This document shows positions 3,410-64,000 of a stretch of 64,000 nt of DNA, in pieces. A program made the translations under genes and the position numbers. The DNA is from a virus (taxonomy: Duplodnaviria; Caudoviricetes): positions 1 through 64,000 of IMG/VR virus record IMGVR_UViG_3300021387_001464; one strand, 5' to 3'. The notes beneath the pieces were generated by a model. That model did not search any database and was not told the DNA's origin. It was given only the letters and a program-made list of their open reading frames with translations. Every line of letters starts with the position of its first letter. Positions within the stretch are counted from its first letter, which is position 1.

Positions 3410-5068
3410 ATGTTGTACATGAATAATGCGTTTAGCAATTACACAGAGTTTTCAAATCTGTTTGGTGTGAATGAGCATGGTAATGGTGAGAAATCACGGA
3501 GAAACAAAATCCTGCTATCTCTTTATAAGAGTAAGAACATATTGCACTATATGGCTACTCACTCACAGAAAGAGGAAAGTTACATCAATTACTACGGATG
3601 CAATGATATGACTACTCTTTATAGTAGTGTATTGGAATGGCTACAATCGGAAAGCAAACACAATGACGATGCACGAAACCGCATTATATTGAATGGTATT
3701 GATGTTTATAGTGTGCGATATGAATTAGACGATTTTGATGGTATCTGTGAGGATGGAGATACCCGATCAATCCGCTACATCAATACGGAGAGGGGTAGAG
3801 TGTTCAAAATGAGGGCAGGAAAGTTCTTGCGCAATCTGATTGAGGAAAACCCCAATCTTAATGCCACACTACCCGAACAGATTAAGATATGGGTATGTGA
3901 GGAATTTGCGGAGAGATGGAAAGCGTATGCAGCAGAACATATCACACATGATCAATATACATTATACGTCAATTCCAATTTTGAGGAAATTTACGATAGT
4001 GACAGATGTGCAGGGGATTTCGGCAGTTGTATGGTGGATGATGGTTATTGGACTTTTTACAGAGATAGTGTTTCGGCAAAAGCTGCGTATTTAGAGAATG
4101 AGGATGGCGATATTGTTGCACGTTGTATTATCTATACTGATGTTATAGATGGTGCAGGAAATCACTTGAGATTAGCAGAAAGACAATACGCAAGTGGTGG
4201 TGATGATAGTCTGAAACGTATGTTAGTAATGCGATTGATTGAGGGTAAGCATATTGATGGTTACAAGAAAGTGGGTGCAGATTGCCATTCTCCAAAAGCA
4301 TTTGTAGATATTCACGGAAATACACTACCCAATCTAAATCTCCATATAGACTGCGATTTATATCACTATGATGTAGTTTCGTATCAAGACAGTTTCAAGT
4401 TCTACGATGAGGATGAGCAGATTGCCTACAATAGCGGAGATTATGAGAACTTATCCGTAACCAATGGAGAGAGAGAGGACGATCATGAGCATGATTGTTG
4501 GAGTGAATGGAATGAAGAATATATCTATGAGGACGATGCGTACTATGTAGATACAAGAGATGATTATTTCTATGGCAGTCAAGTTGTAAGCGCAAATGTT
4601 TGGAATGGTAGCAGATATTATGAGGAAACCTGCTATGAGGGTGATTGCATTGAAATTGATGGTGAGTGGTACTATGCAGGAAATAATGCAGAAAGTCCCG
4701 AAGATAATGGTATTGTACAATGTGACAGATGTGGTGAGTATTTAGTTAAGGATAATGGATATTATAGCAATCTCACAGAGGAATGGTATTGCGATGAAAC
4801 TTGTCAAGAATTAGCAGAGGACGATTACAGAGAGGAAAACGATTGTAAGTATGACGATTACGATGGTGAGTGGTACGATTGCGCATACTATACCTTTGTT
4901 AGAGTTCTGTTTTGGGATTACGCTACTCACAGACGTATCAATGGACTTACAAGACGTAGTAATTTGCGTATGAGTAACTTTGTGAACTACAAAGGTAATT
5001 GGTATTGCAATAACATTGATAGAGATAAGAGAATGCCCAATGAAAAGGTATCAAAGGATGCAGAATAA
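3410..5068 (+). CDS. large phage protein with GSCM / ARCIIY motifs and an acidic Cys/Tyr-rich C-terminus
   Basis: Long ORF; start moved to 3410, just after repeat A; adjacent to the peptidase. Confidence 0.8.
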   Translation: MLYMNNAFSNYTEFSNLFGVNEHGNGEKSRRNKILLSLYKSKNILHYMATHSQKEESYINYYGCNDMTTLYSSVLEWLQSESKHNDDARNRIILNGIDVYSVRYELDDFDGICEDGDTRSIRYINTERGRVFKMRAGKFLRNLIEENPNLNATLPEQIKIWVCEEFAERWKAYAAEHITHDQYTLYVNSNFEEIYDSDRCAGDFGSCMVDDGYWTFYRDSVSAKAAYLENEDGDIVARCIIYTDVIDGAGNHLRLAERQYASGGDDSLKRMLVMRLIEGKHIDGYKKVGADCHSPKAFVDIHGNTLPNLNLHIDCDLYHYDVVSYQDSFKFYDEDEQIAYNSGDYENLSVTNGEREDDHEHDCWSEWNEEYIYEDDAYYVDTRDDYFYGSQVVSANVWNGSRYYEETCYEGDCIEIDGEWYYAGNNAESPEDNGIVQCDRCGEYLVKDNGYYSNLTEEWYCDETCQELAEDDYREENDCKYDDYDGEWYDCAYYTFVRVLFWDYATHRRINGLTRRSNLRMSNFVNYKGNWYCNNIDRDKRMPNEKVSKDAE

Positions 5069-15141: not shown

Positions 15142-15333
15142 ATGATGTCTGATGTCTGATGTATGATGTTTGATGTATGATGGATGAGGGCTGAGGGATG
15201 ATGTCTGATGGCTGATGTATGATGTTTGATGTTTGATGTATGAGGGCTGATGGCTGATGTCTGATGTTTCACTCTTACATCTTACCTCTTACATCTTACA
15301 TCTTACCTCTTACATCTTACATCTTACCTCTTA
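15142..15333. repeat. heptamer microrepeats (TGATGTC/A, then CTTACAT/CTTACCT)
   Basis: 7-bp periodicity; similar tracts at 15452-15484, 15940-16066, 16513-16588, 6586-6623, 60499-60525. Confidence 0.9.
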
Positions 15334-15939: not shown

Positions 15940-16076
15940 AGATGTCTGAAGGCTGAAGGCTGATGGCTGATGTAAGATGTATGATGTAGGATGTATGATG
16001 TATGATGTCTGAAGGCTGAAGGCTGATGTATAATTTTCAATGTTCAATGTTCAATGTTCAATTTTCAATTAGGACT

Positions 16077-16511: not shown

Positions 16512-16653
16512 GGATGTATGATGTATGATGTAGGATGTATGATGTAGGATGGGTGATGTATGATGTCTGATGTATGATGTAGGATGTAAGTTGTCCGAGT
16601 GTTAACGGCGAGTAGTCGTACCTTTGTCTTGTCAAATCAACATAAAAACGACA

Positions 16654-18617: not shown

Positions 18618-19769
18618 ATGCTTATCACAAACATCCAAGAGCTTCGCCTCGCCAGCCCCGCCCACGCCCTCGACAGCATCGACGGACTCGTAGGCTTCAT
18701 AGACAATAGTGAGCATGACTTCCTTGAAGACAAGCTCGGTACCCCTTTGTATAGTAAACTATGCCAGTGGTACGACGAGAACCCCACCAAGCGCAGCAGC
18801 GTCGCCGACTACCAGACAGGCTACTGGAGCCGCCTACTACTGCTCGCCCAGCGCTGCGTAGCCTTCGACGCCCTTGGCCGTGCTATCGGCATGCAGGCCA
18901 TCAGTGTGAATAATGCAGGCATCAACATGAGTATCGCCGACGACTACCCCGCACCAGACAAGAACGGCAAGACCATCGACCTATACCGTGATACCTGCAA
19001 CAAGGAGGCACACGCTGCCCTCAACCAACTGCTCCGACAGCTGGAACAGTGGTGCAATGAGCAAGGCGCAGCCGCCGATGATACATCAGACATCAGCCCT
19101 CAGACATCAGACGTCGAAGACGATACATCAGACATCTTACATCAGACATCAGACATCGAAGACGATACATCAGCCATCAGCCCTCAGACATCAGACATCG
19201 AAGACGAGCGCAGCGAGATCGTCACCCTCTGGAAGGAGAGCCGCTACTACTACCTCGCCGCCGCCCTGCTCATCCCCTCGTGCGAGGTGCTGCAGTCGTA
19301 TCTGAACATCTACGACAGCCGCGAGAAGTTCATCCAACTGCTGCCCGACCTCCGCTTCATCCAGGAAGAGATTATCGCCAACAGCATCGGCGAAGACCTG
19401 TTGAAGGTGGTCATCGACTTCATTCGTGACAGCAAGCTGCCTGGAGGTGACGAACCGATAGGTGGTATTCCTGTTGCCTCGTTCACCGAGCAGATGCTCA
19501 CCCGACTGGCCCACCGCTTGCGCAAGGTCATGGTAGCACTGCTTGTCGGTCGTACCTCGGTCTTGAAGTACGCCAAGGAACAAAAGGTACAAGCCCATGA
19601 CGACGGCGTGCGTATGCTGGCGACAACATCAGAAATGTTAAAAACACTCATCCCGCCAGCACCAGCGACGGCCACGGAGCCCGAATCAGGCTGCTGTTGC
19701 CATCAACCATCAGACATCAGTCCTCAGACATCGGGCTCCGCTGCCTGCTGGACGCCACCGATACTGTAA
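18618..19769 (+). CDS. DUF6712-like phage protein with in-frame heptamer-repeat insert
   Basis: Follows the portal; DDTSDISPQTSD repeats encoded by CATCAGA heptamers. Confidence 0.55.
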   Translation: MLITNIQELRLASPAHALDSIDGLVGFIDNSEHDFLEDKLGTPLYSKLCQWYDENPTKRSSVADYQTGYWSRLLLLAQRCVAFDALGRAIGMQAISVNNAGINMSIADDYPAPDKNGKTIDLYRDTCNKEAHAALNQLLRQLEQWCNEQGAAADDTSDISPQTSDVEDDTSDILHQTSDIEDDTSAISPQTSDIEDERSEIVTLWKESRYYYLAAALLIPSCEVLQSYLNIYDSREKFIQLLPDLRFIQEEIIANSIGEDLLKVVIDFIRDSKLPGGDEPIGGIPVASFTEQMLTRLAHRLRKVMVALLVGRTSVLKYAKEQKVQAHDDGVRMLATTSEMLKTLIPPAPATATEPESGCCCHQPSDISPQTSGSAACWTPPIL

Positions 19770-23824: not shown

Positions 23825-24496
23825 ATGACACAGACGTATCAGATGAAGCATAACGCGCAGGGGACGATCTACAGCCTGCTGACGGTGGAGAGTGACGGAC
23901 AGATGACGATGACGTTCCACGGAACGGACCGCGAGATCTGCCACGAGGCGAACATGACGGAGGACGGACGGATAGCCGTAGGCAGCTCGCTGTTCCCCGG
24001 ACTGGAGAGCGGAAGGTGGCAACTGATGGCTGATGTAAGAGGGCTGATGGCTGATGTTATAGAGACCGCAGATTGCGCAGATTCCACAGATAATGAGCCG
24101 GAGGTTATAGCAGAAACTACGAATTACACGAATAATGAGCCTGTAACCGTGCGCTCGGCTCTGCCGCTTTGCTCAGCAAAGAACTCTAAACCATCAGACA
24201 TCAGCCATCATACATCAGCCATCGACCAGCCCCGTCCTCGTCGGCAGCGCAAGCCTCGCAAGCCGCGTGTGGAGCGTCAGCCATCAGACATTAGCCATCA
24301 GACATTATCCATCGACCATCAGCCATCATCCATCGACCATCAGCCATCAGACATCGACCGCCATCAGCCATCTGCCACGATGAAGGCAATCGGCATGGTG
24401 GCAGCGGCTACGGTGGCGTTGTTCGTGATTTACGAGACTGGGCTGCTCATTCCACTGGGACTAATTGGTCTCGCCACGGGCGGGCTCTTGAAATAA
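23825..24496 (+). CDS. hypothetical protein with heptamer-derived repeats and a C-terminal TM segment
   Basis: 223 aa ORF. Confidence 0.7.
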   Translation: MTQTYQMKHNAQGTIYSLLTVESDGQMTMTFHGTDREICHEANMTEDGRIAVGSSLFPGLESGRWQLMADVRGLMADVIETADCADSTDNEPEVIAETTNYTNNEPVTVRSALPLCSAKNSKPSDISHHTSAIDQPRPRRQRKPRKPRVERQPSDISHQTLSIDHQPSSIDHQPSDIDRHQPSATMKAIGMVAAATVALFVIYETGLLIPLGLIGLATGGLLK

Positions 24497-28436: not shown

Positions 28437-28497
28437 ACCACGGATTACACAGATTATACGGATTAGGTTTTTAACGAACACGAATAGACACGAATTT

Positions 28498-28866
28498 ATG
28501 AAAAGAACAGTTGATACACTACGAGGACGATATAAGATTATCGGTGATGGAGAAACTACAAAGGCCGTAAGCATTATGGATAATGACGATTGCTTCGAGT
28601 TCGACAAATCAGAAGTAACCGATGAAGAGGTACAGGAACGCATCAATGCTACTTGCGAATGGCCGAAAGCAGGCGAATGGTGTTCCGACTTTGATAAGGC
28701 ACCACGAGGAATCCCTGTATTGCTGTATAGCGGAGAGATATACGAACCCGCTGTCGGAAGCATCAGCGAGACCGATGACGAAATTATCAGCAGCCATTCG
28801 GAATACGACCACTGCCCACTGAACCACATCGACCAGTTTATGATTATCCCAGACTTTGAGCCATGA
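28498..28866 (+). CDS. hypothetical protein
   Basis: 122 aa ORF overlapping the next gene (ATGA). Confidence 0.7.
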   Translation: MKRTVDTLRGRYKIIGDGETTKAVSIMDNDDCFEFDKSEVTDEEVQERINATCEWPKAGEWCSDFDKAPRGIPVLLYSGEIYEPAVGSISETDDEIISSHSEYDHCPLNHIDQFMIIPDFEP

Positions 28867-29564
28867 ACGTAAACGAGATATACAATATGGACTGCCTGCA
28901 GGGATTGCGGCAAATTGAGAGTGGCACGGTGTCGCTCATCGTTGCAGACCCGCCATACGAGTTGCAGCAGCACAACGAAAAAGGCGGTAGTGCTTTCGGC
29001 AAGAAAGGCCGAGACTATCATCAAGGCATCGACCACCTGCAAAGCGGTGTGAGCAACGAAGTGTTGGAGGAATGTCTGCGTGTCTGCAAGCATCCTAACA
29101 TGTATATCTTCTGCTCGAAAGACCAGTTGCCGCAGTTGCTGGGCTTTGCACTCAGCCACAAGTTGAAGTACGACCTGCTGACGTGGCACAAGACGAACCC
29201 TGTGCCAACCTGCAACAACAAGTATCTGAGCGATACGGAGTACATCGTATTCATGCGGAATGGCGCCAACCTCTACGGCACGTATGAGACCAAGCGCAAG
29301 TATTTCATCACTCAGACGAATACTGCCGACAAGAAGGCTTTCGGGCATCCTACACCAAAGCCTGTGCCTATCATCAAGACGCTTATAGAGAACTCAACCC
29401 AACTGGGGGGGGTAGTTCTTGACCCTTACATGGGCAGTGGCACAACGGCAATCGCTTGTATGCAGAGCGGACGGAAGTACATCGGCTTCGAGTTGAACAA
29501 GGAATACTACGACAAGGCGGTAAAGCGTATCAAGGGCGAGCAAGCACAACTTACGCTATTCTAA
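28863..29564 (+). CDS. DNA N6A/N4C methyltransferase (beta class) with an in-frame G8 tract
   Basis: DPPY, HPTPKP, VLDPYMGSGTT; G8 at 29405-29412. Confidence 0.92.
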   Translation: MNVNEIYNMDCLQGLRQIESGTVSLIVADPPYELQQHNEKGGSAFGKKGRDYHQGIDHLQSGVSNEVLEECLRVCKHPNMYIFCSKDQLPQLLGFALSHKLKYDLLTWHKTNPVPTCNNKYLSDTEYIVFMRNGANLYGTYETKRKYFITQTNTADKKAFGHPTPKPVPIIKTLIENSTQLGGVVLDPYMGSGTTAIACMQSGRKYIGFELNKEYYDKAVKRIKGEQAQLTLF

Positions 29565-37508: not shown

Positions 37509-37714
37509 ATGGCGAATAAATTTCTCGGTAATGGACTGAGCCGCACGGCGATGGTGTTTAAGATTGCGACGCTGGCAGGGCATAAGCTAACGGTGCCAGA
37601 ACTGAACCGCATAAAGGATGTCAACCCCCGCACCCTGGAGCGCGTCTATGACTCCGTATTGGGGGGGTAAGTAAAGGCGATGCGCTGTTTGCGCTCAGAC
37701 TGGTATTGAAGTAA
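37509..37714 (+). pseudogene. small gene truncated at a G7 tract (G8 would extend it)
   Basis: TTG GGG GGG TAA; one extra G gives ..GGVSKGDALFALRLVLK*. Confidence 0.45.
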
Positions 37715-58544: not shown

Positions 58545-59039
58545 ATGGCACAAATGACCATGAAAGTGCGTAAGGTGAACGCACAGAACCCCAAGACGCA
58601 GGCCAAAGGCTTTGCCGCCCGCGCCATCACCAATGGTAAGCAGTCGTTTGCAGACATCTGCGAACTGGCAGGACTGAACACCACGATGAACGTGGCTGAG
58701 CTGGAGGCTGCCGGCAAGCTGATTCTGCAGGCCGCTGCCCGTGAGTTGAAGAACGGCAAGATTGTGGACCTGGGTCCCATCGGCGCTATCTACCCTGCCG
58801 TGAGCGGCAAGTGGGCTGAGAAGGCGGAGGACTTGCAGAAGAGCGACCTGACGCTGAAGGTGAACTACCGTCCGAGCGACGAGATTGACGCTGCCATCAA
58901 GGGTGCCAAGCTGGCATGGGCAAGCGCCGAGGACGAGAAGAAGGAACAGGAGAACGGTGGCGAGAACACCACGACTGATCTTGACGAGGGCGGCAACACC
59001 GGCGGCGGCAACACCGGCGGAGGCTCGGACGAAGGCTAA
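58545..59039 (+). CDS. Bacteroidetes HU-like DNA-binding protein
   Basis: ELKNGKIVDLGPIG, VNYRPS, GGNTGG tail. Confidence 0.8.
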   Translation: MAQMTMKVRKVNAQNPKTQAKGFAARAITNGKQSFADICELAGLNTTMNVAELEAAGKLILQAAARELKNGKIVDLGPIGAIYPAVSGKWAEKAEDLQKSDLTLKVNYRPSDEIDAAIKGAKLAWASAEDEKKEQENGGENTTTDLDEGGNTGGGNTGGGSDEG

Positions 59040-59094
59040 TGTCTGATGTCTGATGGCTGATGTCTGATGTAAGACGTCACCACCAAGGGACAAG

Positions 59095-60116: not shown

Positions 60117-60503
60117 ATGAACAAATTCCAAAAGGGCGATATGGAAGAAATACAGGATGCTTGCAGCGAGGGCAAGGAATTTTACTTAGACAGCCCTGAT
60201 AGTGACCGTAGGGCGTTCTTCAAGTTTGGAGGAACGACTTATTTCATTACGCGGGATGGCAAGGTGCTCTCATCGCGAGGCGACGGGTATCGCGAGCACG
60301 AGATTGCGCAGTATAATGGCAAGGGTTATCGTCGTGTACGGCTACGTGGCAAGACATTCAAGGTTCACCGCCTGGTGGCCGAGGCATTCGTGCCCAACCC
60401 TGACAACTTGCCCTATGTGCTGCACATTGACGGGGACCGCGAGAATAACATCTGTAGAAACCTGGAGTGGTCCGCAAAGCAGAGCAACCACCATGGGAAG
60501 TGA
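60117..60503 (+). CDS. HNH (HNH_3/NUMOD4-type) endonuclease
   Basis: VHRLVAEAFVPNP..V.HIDGDRENN...NLEW. Confidence 0.9.
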   Translation: MNKFQKGDMEEIQDACSEGKEFYLDSPDSDRRAFFKFGGTTYFITRDGKVLSSRGDGYREHEIAQYNGKGYRRVRLRGKTFKVHRLVAEAFVPNPDNLPYVLHIDGDRENNICRNLEWSAKQSNHHGK

Positions 60504-60575
60504 AAAGTGAAAAGTGAAAAGTGAAAAATTTCTTGCTTAGGCAAGCGTACTAAAGAAACGATTAGCTACCGCCGT

Positions 60576-60730
60576 ATGAGTTATGTCGATAAACCCATCA
60601 TCCTTGGCAGGTACAGCCCGAGTCAGAATGGCATAGTGGTAAGCCCACGCGGACCCGCACTCTGCCTTGCAGGGGGGGTAACGGACACGATACGGACAAG
60701 CCGAAAATACTGATAGAACATGAATTGTAA
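60576..60730 (+). CDS. TRD-like mini-gene 1, frameshifted (G7; G8 restores)
   Basis: MSYVDKPIILGRYSPSQNGIVVSPRGPALCLAGG|GNGHDTDKPKILIEHEL*. Confidence 0.7.
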
Positions 60731-60863
60731 AACAATGCTATTGAATCCACAGGGGGGGGTATGCCGCACCATCAAGTCACAGTATTACAAAAGCAGCGTG
60801 GCGAATTTCCTGCTGCAGACCACCAGAGGAGCAACGGCAGTATTGATAGAATATGAACTATAA
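60720..60863 (+). CDS. TRD-like mini-gene 2, in frame (G8)
   Basis: MNCKTMLLNPQGGVCRTIKSQYYKSSVANFLLQTTRGATAVLIEYEL*. Confidence 0.75.
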   Translation: MNCKTMLLNPQGGVCRTIKSQYYKSSVANFLLQTTRGATAVLIEYEL

Positions 60864-61078
60864 GCGCATACCGAAGCCAGCGAACCTGCGAGACCATACA
60901 CCGAGTATGGCCGAAGCATTGCCCTATATGATAGAGGCGTGCGGTTTGAGGGGGGGGGTGTTTGTTCGACTATCGCCACTTTGTGTACGACACCATCGAC
61001 GGATGCTACCCGTTCCCAGTGACCACAAGGATTCATGCCAGTAATCAGATTTGGCTATGCAAAGAAATAGAACTTTAA
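60853..61078 (+). CDS. TRD-like mini-gene 3, frameshifted (G9; G8 restores)
   Basis: ..ACGLRGG|CLFDYRHFVYDTIDGCYPFPVTTRIHASNQIWLCKEIEL*. Confidence 0.6.
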
Positions 61079-61092
61079 AACAAGATAAAAGA

Positions 61093-62598
61093 ATGATTGC
61101 AAAAGTTTATCCAGATGGGCATCCTGACTTGCAAGGCAAGAAGGACCCGACGCACCCAGTGCGCTATTTCGACATCCGTAAACTCACTCCACGCAAGTGC
61201 TATTCACTGATGGGCGTGCCGCCGCAGCAGATCGACACGCTGATGAAAACCGAAAAGAAACCATATATGGCATGGGTGGGCGTAGATGCCGAACTGGCTG
61301 TGTTCGGACTGGAGCCGAGTGCCACGCGCCGCGAGGTCGATGAAGCATATCGCGAGGCTATCGAGAGTCTAAGAAGACCCACCCCCGACCCCTCCCTGGG
61401 CGAGGGAGGGGAGTGTGAAGACCCCGACAGACCCACCCCCATGCACCTCCCTGCTGAGGGAGGGGAGTGTGAAGAGCCTGAAATGAGCGAAGAGGAGGTG
61501 GCCCTGATGCGTGAGAACTACGATATGAACTACCAGCGCATCATCGCTGCCAGCCAGGAGCAGCGTTACGGTGACGTGCAGATTATTGCCAACTCGTCGC
61601 ATTACAAGCTGGCGGGTAACTCCATCGTCTGCGACGTGCTGATGTATATCTACGAGGAACTGATGTACCCGACGGGCCGCCGACTGCCGCAGGAGCAGAC
61701 CGACCTGTTCGCCCAGCCGCAGTTCCGGCTGACCCGAAACTGGAAGAAAGAGCCGCTGAAGTTGGTAACACTTTGCAGCGGCTACGACTCGCAGGCAATC
61801 GCTATGGATATGCTGCAACAGCGCTATCCGGACTTCCGATGGGAACTGAAGGCATGGAGCGAGTTCGACCCCGAGAGCAGCCGGCCACTGGAAGAGCAGC
61901 CCGCCGTGGTGGCCCATAATCTGCTGTTCCCACAATACAAGGATTTGAACCGTGGCGACATGACCAAGGCCGACTGGAGCGACCTCGCCGATGCAGGTAT
62001 CGACCTGCTGACATATAGTACTCCGTGTCAGTCCATCTCACAGGCTGGCAAGCGAGAGGGTATCAAGAAAGGTAGTGGCACTCGCAGCGCCGTGCTGTGG
62101 AGCACCGAGATGGCGGTAGAGCATCTGCGACCGAAGGTGCTATTGCAGGAGAATGTGCGGGCGCTTATCAACAGCGTGAACATGCCCGACTTCCGCGAGT
62201 GGTGCAGCCTGCTGGAGAGCTACGGCTACGTGAACTTCCTCGCGCCATCGTTCCCGACGGTCTGGGGCACCGACAAGCGCGACAAGAAGACCGTGCCGGG
62301 CATCCTGAACGCCAAGCATTATGGTGTGCCACAGAACCGCGAGCGGGTGTATATGGTCTCCATTCGTGCCGACCTGCTCGGTGGCACGCAGTATGAGTTT
62401 CCCCGTCCTTTCCCGCTCGACAAGTGCATTGCCGATGTGCTGGAGGATAATGTCGATGAGCGTTTCTTCCTGAAGCCCGACTCGGTAATCAAGTTCCTCA
62501 CAGTGAATGAATCGACTGACAGTAACGATATACACTATACGGTAACGGACCACAAACTCTCCGATGAAGAAATCGCCAAGATTCGTAGTGGAAAGTAG
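61093..62598 (+). CDS. circularly permuted DNA (cytosine-5) methyltransferase lacking an internal TRD
   Basis: Motif order IX (IRKLTPR..LMG), X (YKLAGNSI), I (LCSGYD), IV (TPCQ), VI (QENV), VIII (PQNRERVY), then a short tail. Confidence 0.9.
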   Translation: MIAKVYPDGHPDLQGKKDPTHPVRYFDIRKLTPRKCYSLMGVPPQQIDTLMKTEKKPYMAWVGVDAELAVFGLEPSATRREVDEAYREAIESLRRPTPDPSLGEGGECEDPDRPTPMHLPAEGGECEEPEMSEEEVALMRENYDMNYQRIIAASQEQRYGDVQIIANSSHYKLAGNSIVCDVLMYIYEELMYPTGRRLPQEQTDLFAQPQFRLTRNWKKEPLKLVTLCSGYDSQAIAMDMLQQRYPDFRWELKAWSEFDPESSRPLEEQPAVVAHNLLFPQYKDLNRGDMTKADWSDLADAGIDLLTYSTPCQSISQAGKREGIKKGSGTRSAVLWSTEMAVEHLRPKVLLQENVRALINSVNMPDFREWCSLLESYGYVNFLAPSFPTVWGTDKRDKKTVPGILNAKHYGVPQNRERVYMVSIRADLLGGTQYEFPRPFPLDKCIADVLEDNVDERFFLKPDSVIKFLTVNESTDSNDIHYTVTDHKLSDEEIAKIRSGK

Positions 62599-62784
62599 TG
62601 CTGTGCTGCGGGGCGTGCGGACAGAGCACGCCCGTGCAGTACGCCGTATCTACGGTGACAGGGGGGGTACTGCCACTTCTCGGACCGCAACTACCTGCCT
62701 GCTACCGATGGCTGCAGCAACACCATCACTGGCGTACAGAAGGACAACCTATTGATAGTTGAATATGAATATAAAGAGTGTTAA
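62564..62784 (+). CDS. TRD-like mini-gene 4, frameshifted (G7; G8 restores)
   Basis: ..VRTEHARAVRRIYGDRGG|YCHFSDRNYLPATDGCSNTITGVQKDNLLIVEYEYKEC*. Confidence 0.75.
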
Positions 62785-62908
62785 GCCCTACGACGATTAC
62801 AATTCTACCCCCCCCCGACGCGATGGTGTCATTGGCACCGTTACAAGGCAAATTGGAACATCAGCACCAAGGAACGGCTGGAAAATATTGATAGAGTATG
62901 AAATATAA
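62765..62908 (+). CDS. TRD-like mini-gene 5, in frame (C9)
   Basis: MNIKSVKPYDDYNSTPPRRDGVIGTVTRQIGTSAPRNGWKILIEYEI*. Confidence 0.75.
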   Translation: MNIKSVKPYDDYNSTPPRRDGVIGTVTRQIGTSAPRNGWKILIEYEI

Positions 62909-63062
62909 CAGGATATTGCAAATAGGCAACCTTACTGAAGGTGCAGGCAGAAACAACCCGCAGCGCAGAAGGCTCTACTCGCCCTATGGCATTGCACCAA
63001 CGGTGTACGGCTATCAAGGCGGTGGCAATTTGCAACCCTTGGTATTGATAGAGTATGAGTAG
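62898..63062 (+). CDS. TRD-like mini-gene 6, no homopolymer
   Basis: MKYNRILQIGNLTEGAGRNNPQRRRLYSPYGIAPTVYGYQGGGNLQPLVLIEYE*. Confidence 0.8.
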   Translation: MKYNRILQIGNLTEGAGRNNPQRRRLYSPYGIAPTVYGYQGGGNLQPLVLIEYE

Positions 63063-63255
63063 CGTTACCCCCATATTGCGGCAAGTCCCTGTTCGGCGAG
63101 TGCGGACGGAATGGGCAAAGGCCATCCGACGAGAGACGGGCACCAACCCGTTTCAAGCCAAACAACTGGAGGAGTTTGTGTCGGACTACATGCCTACCAT
63201 CACCGCCAGTGCAAACATCGAGAACTACATAAAGGTAGAGTATGATATTGATTAA
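63055..63255 (+). CDS. TRD-like mini-gene 7, no long homopolymer
   Basis: ..VRTEWAKAIRRETG..MPTITASANIENYIKVEYDID*. Confidence 0.75.
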   Translation: MSSVTPILRQVPVRRVRTEWAKAIRRETGTNPFQAKQLEEFVSDYMPTITASANIENYIKVEYDID

Positions 63256-63424
63256 AGAAACGATGCCCAACGAAGACCGCTTCCCTGTCCGTATCTCAGC
63301 AAGTCGTGGCAGGGGGGGGCAAAGACCGTTCCATCAGGTCATTGAACTCGGATCGTCGCAAGCCACAAACACCATCACATCAGTACAAAAAGATAATCTG
63401 GTATGGATAGAGCGAGATATTTAG
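63242..63424 (+). CDS. TRD-like mini-gene 8, in frame (G8)
   Basis: ..SASRGRGGQRPFHQVIELGSSQATNTITSVQKDNLVWIERDI*. Confidence 0.8.
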   Translation: MILIKETMPNEDRFPVRISASRGRGGQRPFHQVIELGSSQATNTITSVQKDNLVWIERDI

Positions 63425-63556
63425 TTGGCGTACATCCGTTCTCTCACGCTTTGGAGTGTGAGGGCAAAATATGGGGGGGGGCAAATCAGTCCTGCCCTGC
63501 GGAGTACGGATTATAAATGTCCTCATTGTGTATTGATTGAGTATGAAGGAGTTTAA
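63403..63556 (+). CDS. TRD-like mini-gene 9, frameshifted (G9; G8 restores)
   Basis: MDRARYLVGVHPFSHALECEGKIWGG|QISPALRSTDYKCPHCVLIEYEGV*. Confidence 0.75.
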
Positions 63557-63723
63557 GTTTATTGGATGGACACGGCTCGGCAGTGGAAAAGGTGACGTAT
63601 CAAAGTATCATCTGCGCCACTACTGTAACGCCATAACCTCGTTTGCAGGGGGGGGGTATTGGCAAGGATTCGCAGACTGGAATGTATAACACCACACCGT
63701 ATGTATTGATAGAATATGAGTAA
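63543..63723 (+). CDS. TRD-like mini-gene 10, frameshifted (G9; G8 restores)
   Basis: MKEFKFIGWTR..YCNAITSFAGG|GIGKDSQTGMYNTTPYVLIEYE*. Confidence 0.75.
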
Positions 63724-63911
63724 AGAAAAGAAAGTTCGCCGATGCGACAACATTGCAGGGAAGTGGATGCCCGATGGCTCTATCCGCTTCTACCAAATGA
63801 ACGAGCGGAAAGGCGGTGTGCCCGAACTTGTCAACGGCTACGCTGGGGGGGGTCATGCCCTGTATCATAGCAGGCCATGAGCATTATGTTATTGTAGATT
63901 ATGACCTATGA
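63716..63911 (+). CDS. TRD-like mini-gene 11, frameshifted (G8; G7 or G10 restores)
   Basis: MSKEKKVRR..PDGSIRFYQ..GYAGG|VMPCIIAGHEHYVIVDYDL*. Confidence 0.65.
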
Positions 63912-64000
63912 GTAACGTCAAGCATTATCCAACCGACGGGCGACCGTTTCTCTCCACCGCTTTGAGGGGGGGGCAGTTCGTGCTGCAAGTTCGACAAGCC
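63908..64000 (+). CDS. TRD-like mini-gene 12, open through G8, truncated by the window end
   Basis: MSNVKHYPTDGRPFLSTALRGGQFVLQVRQA... Confidence 0.6.
   Translation, partial: MSNVKHYPTDGRPFLSTALRGGQFVLQVRQA

Follow-up and report, generated by a model that had tools for sequence, protein, structure and literature searches.

The DNA analysed here (the window) comprises bases 1-64000 of the 111,678-bp IMG/VR virus record IMGVR_UViG_3300021387_001464, a member of the Caudoviricetes, and near its end it runs into an array of very small genes, which we call cassettes, grouped around the gene for a C5 cytosine methyltransferase. The cassettes are open reading frames (ORFs) of 45-85 codons, 3 upstream and 12 downstream of the methyltransferase core; they resemble target-recognition domains (TRDs), and most of them carry a homopolymeric tract of G or C. 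We consider it probable, at about three chances in four, that slipped-strand events at these tracts switch the separate TRD genes at the DNA level and so generate combinatorial methylation in the phage population.

Tract length and reading frame in the cassette array

The array spans 60576 to ~64680, the part beyond position 64000 holding three more cassettes and a single tract, G10 at 64331, which leaves cassette 14 in need of a -1 change (cassettes 13 and 15 have no tract). All ten tracts that an initial annotation of the window had listed were recovered at the positions and with the lengths it gave (Table 1), as were its frame calls and its two cassettes lacking a long tract. The only other G or C runs of at least 7 in the first 60 kb are, as it had also stated, a G8 at 29405 and a G7 at 37661. 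The enrichment is extreme: 11 runs of ≥7 occur in 4,105 nt, against 0.17 expected under a first-order Markov model built from the rest of the genome (P = 7e-17), and 9 runs of ≥8 against 0.04 expected, with three runs of ≥7 in the remaining 107 kb. The tracts also run counter to the codon bias of this phage, GGG making up 7.5% of the glycine codons and GGGGGG spelling just one of the 85 Gly-Gly pairs outside the array. The further claim that a single-base repair returns each out-of-frame cassette to an EYE-type ending stands except for cassette 3, which ends in KEIEL and has an ambiguous downstream frame. Cassette 9 has an additional in-frame TTG start, from which a shorter product is possible.

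With the core protein as query, 17 viral, 46 metagenome and 2 genome loci were retrieved, and 216 tracts from 34 non-redundant related loci were clustered by their flanks. Some 30 cassette types bear a tract, with lengths from G6 to G10 between conserved flanks. The frame was determined tract by tract, 135 being callable and 81 uncallable. Among the called cases, 39 of 42 G8 tracts are in frame, 55 of 62 G7 tracts need +1, and a -1 change is required by 10 of 16 G9 tracts and by 9 of 12 G6 tracts; over all lengths, 49 called tracts are in frame, 60 need +1 and 26 need -1. The slippage-type switching first proposed is borne out to the extent that frame follows length and that orthologous tracts differ between independent assemblies. 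A comparison of lengths between strains had been set beforehand as a test of that proposal, and it showed the tracts to be variable rather than fixed at the in-frame length.

The record was also compared with assembled contigs (Logan contigs) of four of the 20 runs for which these were available, the runs bearing the sequence being ruminant gut metagenomes: X2, X3 and X4 contain related strains, and the fourth is the probable source of the record. The contigs of this probable source (0.96 of words) span all the tracts and match the record except for one single-base gap within 62451-65324, which is suggestive of switching in a clonal population. Of the closely related loci, two from different samples (L035 and L036) differ over 2,882 nt by no substitution and by two indels, both of them G8/G7. 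Another pair (L034 and L039) has 66 substitutions over 8,186 nt (99.0% identity), and 7 of its 11 G/C runs differ in length; here single-base indels are confined to the tracts, save for one diverged patch, and A/T runs of 6-7 keep a constant length. In a third pair (L037 and L043) the lengths differ at 6 of 7 tracts. Tract length is thus by far the fastest-changing character, and, since the indels of near-identical pairs sit in the tracts while their A/T runs are stable, general assembly noise can be excluded as its cause. The initial annotation had cautioned that tract lengths are error-prone in long-read assemblies; this caveat seems inapplicable, as the same tracts recur in many independent assemblies that are otherwise free of indel noise. 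Its suggestion of independent switching also agrees with these pairs, in which individual tracts change separately.

Table 1. Genes of the array and two further genes of the window, with their tracts and the tracts of their orthologues. X2-X4, runs containing related strains; L numbers, related loci.
Feature	Position	Strand	Tract	Frame and remarks	Tract in orthologues
N6_N4 DNA methyltransferase	28863..29564	+	G8 at 29405-29412, just before GSGTT motif	in frame; PF01555, 4e-33	G7, out of frame (L031); G8, in frame (L034, L039); same place
HNH endonuclease gene	60117..60503	+		Pfam HNH_3, 3e-07; immediately upstream of array	
Cassette 1	60576..60730	+	G7 at 60672-60678	out of frame, needs +1	G7 x10, G8 x3, G9 x2 (n=15)
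Cassette 2	60720..60863	+	G8 at 60752-60759	in frame	one G fewer in X2-X4 strains; G7 in L026
Cassette 3	60853..61078	+	G9 at 60950-60958	out of frame, needs -1; KEIEL ending; stop before core	G8, G8, G10
C5 cytosine methyltransferase core	61093..62598	+	none here	no TRD; permuted (IX, X, then I to VIII)	
Cassette 4	62564..62784	+	G7 at 62661-62667	out of frame, needs +1	8 G7 (out), 7 G8 (in) (n=15); one extra G in X3 and X4 strains, giving in-frame G8
Cassette 5	62765..62908	+	C9 at 62808-62816 (Pro-Pro)	in frame	C7, C8, C8
Cassette 6	62898..63062	+	none (GGC GGT GGC)	in frame	
Cassette 7	63055..63255	+	no long tract (C5 only)	in frame	C7-C8 right after start codon (cluster at L011:7742)
Cassette 8	63242..63424	+	G8 at 63312-63319	in frame	
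Cassette 9	63403..63556	+	G9 at 63473-63481	out of frame, needs -1	G7 x3, G8, G9 x2
Cassette 10	63543..63723	+	G9 at 63648-63656	out of frame, needs -1	G6 x2, G7 x8, G8 x5, G9 x1 (n=16, this copy included); G8 alone in frame
Cassette 11	63716..63911	+	G8 at 63845-63852	out of frame, needs -1	G7, G8
Cassette 12	63908..64000, continuing to genome 64162	+	G8 at 63966-63973	in frame	G6 to G9 (n=15, this copy included)

With respect to selection, the ratio of nonsynonymous to synonymous divergence (dN/dS) is 0.02-0.4 at dS ~0.5-1.5 in both halves of the cassettes, and this holds also among the out-of-frame copies alone, whose downstream halves, read in their own frame, give 0.02-0.19 at dS ~0.5-1.4. 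Because purifying selection persists in them, the out-of-frame copies are evidently not decaying and their OFF state is transient. The run itself is uninterrupted in nearly all orthologues despite their synonymous divergence. Non-slippery codings do occur, namely GGTGGTGG, which replaces the tract of cassette 1 in one relative (L013), and the GGC GGT GGC of cassette 6, where the tract has been lost or locked in this phage, given that two orthologues (L029 and L031) have G6 and G7 there. As tract positions are non-homologous across TRD types, and the tract is sometimes poly-C, the conserved element must be the homopolymer and not a glycine motif.

Cassettes as TRD blocks beside a permuted core

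The methyltransferase core has motifs IV (PCQ), VI (ENV) and VIII (QNRER), together with IX and X, and it matches Pfam PF00145 (6e-36), TIGR00675 dcm (4e-32, above the cut-off) and the chains of M.MpeI and M.HhaI. BLASTP against P0046, a canonical metagenomic enzyme, aligns core residues 286-463 to 50-205 (motifs IV-VIII), 26-47 to 464-485 and 149-191 to 476-518 (motifs IX and X). Since the blocks matching the motif IX/X region at the C-terminus of P0046 precede motifs IV-VIII here, the core is circularly permuted, and it has no TRD. In the cores of relatives a C tract lies in or beside motif IX (for example at L009:6127, L039:2050, L043:5095 and orthologues); C8 keeps the frame, and C7 or C10 truncates 3 of 19 cores. 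This tract would be a master switch, absent from the present phage, which has a non-slippery sequence at that site. Between motifs IX and X the core contains an acidic, proline-rich insert of ~110 residues (61370-61480) with an internal imperfect repeat, which shows indels of 1-3 bases in related strains (L001 positions 2372-2456).

The nature of the cassettes is clearest for cassette 12. A deep search with its profile found 548 relatives, many of them free mini-proteins, 60-115 residues in length; in the longer relatives, which are PF00145 proteins, the match is located between motifs VIII and IX. In P0046, residues 357-411 are 50% identical to cassette 12 (BLASTP), and the variable region of this enzyme consists of tandem blocks resembling types 6, 8 and 12, of which only type 12 was found by BLASTP and the others by eye. 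From the tandem blocks of P0046 and the relatives of cassette 12 it follows that the cassettes are the TRD blocks of multispecific methyltransferases, each turned into a gene of its own. The TRD-like character originally ascribed to them is thereby upheld through the homology of type 12 to a TRD block of canonical C5 methyltransferases. Single cassettes went unrecognised in Pfam, NCBIfam and PDB profile searches, and PHROGs matches cassette 12 alone, and weakly. Many metagenomic proteins of 340-370 residues (P0030, P0036, P0039 and P0059 among them) consist of TRD blocks followed by motifs IX-X, without I-VIII, and resemble multi-TRD 'beta subunits' of split C5 methyltransferases.

Successive cassettes are joined in a characteristic manner, the ATG of each being embedded in the LIEYE-stop junction of the one before. 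Family-wide, 158 of the 205 cassette ends have an ATG that overlaps the stop region, its commonest position being 8 nt upstream of the stop, and at 128 of the 205 all three frames are closed within ~25 nt. In 9 of 19 loci an N-terminal cassette, belonging to one of four types, is open in the frame of the core, which gives the order TRD-IX-X-I..VIII known as 'Type H'. An upstream cassette reads into the core in L027, L028, L035 and L009 (the core of L009 being broken downstream at C10), and upstream cassettes are likewise open in the core's frame in L026 and L040, that of L026 being of the cassette 3 type, without a tract and fused in frame. Fused cassettes are absent from this phage and from nine further loci, all with highly conserved cores. 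Here, cassette 3 is cut off from the core by a stop, and the core terminates ahead of cassette 4, the ATG of which sits within the 3' end of the core in a different frame. An apparent fusion to the C-terminus of the core in L011 was rejected: that core stops at a TAG codon, the G of which already belongs to the tract as its first base. The arrays are mosaics, because a given cassette type can stand on one side of the core in one genome and on the other side in another; cassette 10, for instance, belongs to a type that stands upstream in many relatives. Close relatives, including one from the isolate Prevotella sp. MGM1, share the architecture of the array.

Proposed mechanism and competing explanations

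We propose that the region serves as a specificity library for a phage C5 cytosine methyltransferase whose core lacks a TRD of its own. Slipped-strand mispairing during replication of the phage DNA would alter a run by one or two bases; G8 would keep a cassette in frame, and G7 or G9 would cut translation short of the TRD's conserved C-terminal half. As the tracts change independently and reversibly, many TRD combinations, and hence methylation patterns, should arise in each population, the 2^10 specificity combinations mentioned in the initial annotation being best taken as an upper bound. The likely benefit is a form of bet-hedging between hosts with restriction systems directed at unmethylated sites and hosts in which methylation-dependent systems attack methylated DNA. 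Switching within one population, one motif per cassette, the action of free TRDs in trans and the selective benefit are what we infer from the comparisons above. A more specific version, somewhat less likely than not, holds that the TRD mini-proteins are exchangeable subunits that dock onto the core in trans, their independent switches continuously creating thousands of methylome variants within one phage lineage, which would hedge between restriction systems that spare methylated DNA and those that attack it. It would cover the switches on each subunit gene, on two other methylases and, in relatives, on the core.

Several points weigh against slipped-strand switching of separate TRD genes. 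The in-frame share of the called tracts is 36% (49/135), near the one-third expected for an unconstrained frame; the most frequent length is G7 (89 of 216 tracts), at which a cassette is OFF; and G outnumbers C on the coding strand by 177 to 19, a bias unexplained by DNA slippage alone. The tract variation is known between contigs, and heterogeneity inside one population is presumed from it, just as a distinct 5-methylcytosine motif is presumed for each cassette. We know of no experimental precedent for free TRD peptides acting in trans. Structure prediction of the complex of the core with cassette 12 was rated weak: it scored 0.34 against 0.00 for the best control, the runs agreed on at least 26% of contacts, and the predicted local distance difference test (pLDDT) of the partner was 29-38. 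In calibration, the mark reached by this pair was also reached by 58 of 80 solved complexes and by 2 of 110 mismatched pairs, with 7 of the 80 solved complexes and both passing mismatches reaching it at 0.60 or under. The AlphaFold2 model of a natural fusion (L028) was likewise poor, with a mean pLDDT of 55, a predicted template modelling score (pTM) of 0.47 and values below 50 in the cassette.

Two of these points would be at home in an alternative that we regard as unlikely, though it is the best of those considered: slippage at the level of expression, by RNA polymerase or the ribosome, such that G7, G8 and G9 would all yield some TRD and tract length would tune the level. The prevalence of G7 tracts requiring +1 would then be natural, the preference for G on the coding strand would be sensible if the mRNA sequence matters, and leaky expression would also account for the purifying selection on out-of-frame copies. 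Against it stand the range of lengths from G6 to G10, the need for both +1 and -1 corrections (on which a uniform programmed frameshift was also rejected), and the lack of any stimulatory structure or conserved slippery context seen around the tracts; moreover, changes of DNA length are directly seen between near-identical genomes. Slippage in expression and switching of the DNA are in any case mutually compatible.

The array might instead be a library of silent cassettes, in which only the N-terminal cassette fused to the core is used and the rest form a reservoir for recombination. The variable position of a given cassette type on either side of the core, the nine loci with an N-terminal cassette open in its frame, and a conserved junction that could act as a recombination joint would all suit such an arrangement, as would the weak support from prediction for binding in trans. 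Yet the loci without any fused cassette, this phage among them, have highly conserved cores; the design of the junctions, with their overlapping ATGs and three-frame closure, fits translation in place; all cassettes point the same way; and the array showed no recombinase gene. On balance this seems somewhat less probable still than slippage in expression.

Errors of sequencing or assembly, with every cassette truly in frame, are very improbable as an explanation. Homopolymers are indeed error-prone on some platforms, and most out-of-frame tracts are one base off G8, but the same tracts are found in the assemblies of many projects, the cultured Prevotella isolate included; the indels of near-identical contigs are restricted to tracts, with the A/T runs stable; differences of 2-3 bases occur; and the independent assembly of the probable source run gives the same lengths except for one base. 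Finally, that the out-of-frame cassettes are decaying pseudogenes left by duplication, with no role in switching, is hardly credible: about two thirds of the callable tracts are out of frame, but the downstream halves of such copies are under purifying selection, the frame-breaking indels of near-identical pairs lie at the tracts apart from one diverged patch, and the homopolymer has been kept across saturating synonymous divergence. Switching at the DNA level is therefore the reading that we retain.

Other genes, other repeats and comparison with known systems

Tracts of this kind are not restricted to the array; 13 of the 14 G/C runs of ≥7 in the genome lie in DNA methyltransferase genes. 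Besides the N6_N4 enzyme (Table 1), a phrog_799 DNA methyltransferase on the minus strand (genome 106441-107115, L071:942-1616) has a C9 at genome 106841 (G9 when read along the coding strand). In the assembly this gene is out of frame, being split exactly at the tract, and its two pieces match the profile at 185-268 and 271-389. The sole long run outside methylase genes, the G7 at 37661-37667, forms the last two glycine codons of a 53-codon ORF (37509-37670) that has no family match; it may be there by chance, because a change of length would barely affect the product. In relatives, G7-G9 tracts are also present in two neighbouring genes (L030:205, L042:553, L030:713 and L031:4730), which by eye resemble genes for a PAPS-reductase-type protein and a radical-SAM protein (CxxxCxxC). 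Their sequences suggest that further DNA-modification genes may be switched likewise in these relatives. A gene for an HNH endonuclease directly precedes the array here; at locus L072 of Prevotella sp. MGM1 such a gene (~3890-4270) lies within the array.

The genome contains many tandem arrays with a period of 7 bases (for example TGATGTC x18, ACATCAG x17 and AAGTGAA x4), at 15143-15267, 15273-15333, 15941-16029, 16513-16588, 19083-19199, 24277-24377, 59039-59070 and 60498-60527, and further at genome ~65296 and 66070-66165. Several are found directly at gene ends, where a TGA-containing repeat of period 7 closes three frames; at least one is inside an ORF. The GTGAAAA array at 60498-60527 must be common to many unrelated contigs, since in four rumen metagenomes its summed contig depth exceeds 20,000, with loose ends in the hundreds. 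Three tandem copies of the 9-mer CACGGATTA, or of its reverse complement, occur at 28439, 40196, 51228, 52220, 53547, 55338 and 58257; this 9-mer may be a regulatory element.

The related loci come mainly from rumen samples, with one contig from the cultured Prevotella sp. MGM1 and one Prevotellaceae metagenome-assembled genome, and the host is likely to be Prevotella. This phage family is common in rumen metagenomes, and the array arrangement is widespread in rumen Prevotella phages.

The enzymes nearest in design are the multispecific C5 methyltransferases of Bacillus phages (M.SPRI, M.phi3TI and M.rho11sI), in which several short TRD blocks serve one catalytic domain. They and P0046 are alike in this respect, with several blocks per core, each thought to confer one specificity, and their blocks end in a short hydrophobic-Glu motif like the LIEYE of the cassettes. 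In the multispecific enzymes, however, the TRDs lie in one polypeptide between motifs VIII and IX and have no switches, whereas here they are separate ORFs, mostly with a tract. If the modules work as predicted, they would constitute a natural set of small, portable specificity modules for 5-methylcytosine that can be read singly.

Permutation has a precedent in M.BssHII, M.Alw26I, M2.Eco31I, M.Esp3I and M2.BsaI (PMC5944983), and the relatives with an N-terminal cassette have the corresponding 'Type H' order; but these natural permuted enzymes have one fixed TRD in the same polypeptide, while the TRD of this phage's core is detached. Split C5 enzymes are also known, and in M.AquI alpha/beta and in artificial fragments cuts next to the TRD complement efficiently (PMC5944983, PMC3404938). 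In the known splits the TRD stays with motifs IX-X, whereas here it is predicted to be a free peptide of 45-85 residues with about 15 alternatives. Docking of such TRDs in trans would, if true, amount to a division of labour like that of Type I systems, which has not been described for enzymes making 5-methylcytosine.

We found no account of an array of this kind in our searches of the literature, and what is new is the combination of separately encoded specificity modules, most of them with their own hypermutable switch. Methyltransferase phase variation is a bacterial textbook case, whereas the contingency loci of phages have been described only recently and as single genes. Work by Sorensen in 2021 reportedly concerns polyG tracts in the receptor-binding genes of Fletchervirus. 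The agt contingency locus of T2/T4 involves a DNA-modification gene, and a trade-off with Type IV restriction, between systems aimed at modified and at unmodified DNA, has been shown for T2 (bioRxiv 10.1101/2025.10.21.683753). Fletchervirus and agt have in common with the present array a heritable and reversible diversity; there, though, it affects single whole genes, here an array of modules, which offers a testable case of the trade-off between methylation-sensitive and methylation-dependent host defences.

The initial annotation spoke of a phasevarion, a label that fits only loosely. In bacterial phasevarions (Type III mod of Haemophilus, Neisseria and Helicobacter; ModH5, PMC5700931) a simple-sequence repeat inside a methyltransferase gene likewise shifts the frame ON or OFF through slipped-strand mispairing. 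The term, however, denotes a bacterial regulon under a phase-variable methylase, with one switch per gene on a bacterial chromosome, whereas here there are 11-13 switches, in a phage, acting on specificity modules. Methylation by the phage of its own DNA is the likelier role, and the output is likely to be protection of that DNA from host restriction. The Type I hsdS shufflons, or 'epigenetic invertons' (PMC7672463), come closest in outcome, as they too vary specificity modules combinatorially within a clonal population; they do so by invertase-mediated recombination of half-genes in bacteria, and not, as here, by homopolymer slippage in the TRD mini-genes of a phage. Should the modules behave as predicted, the array would give the virus, in its arms race with restriction, a means of generating epigenetic diversity combinatorially.

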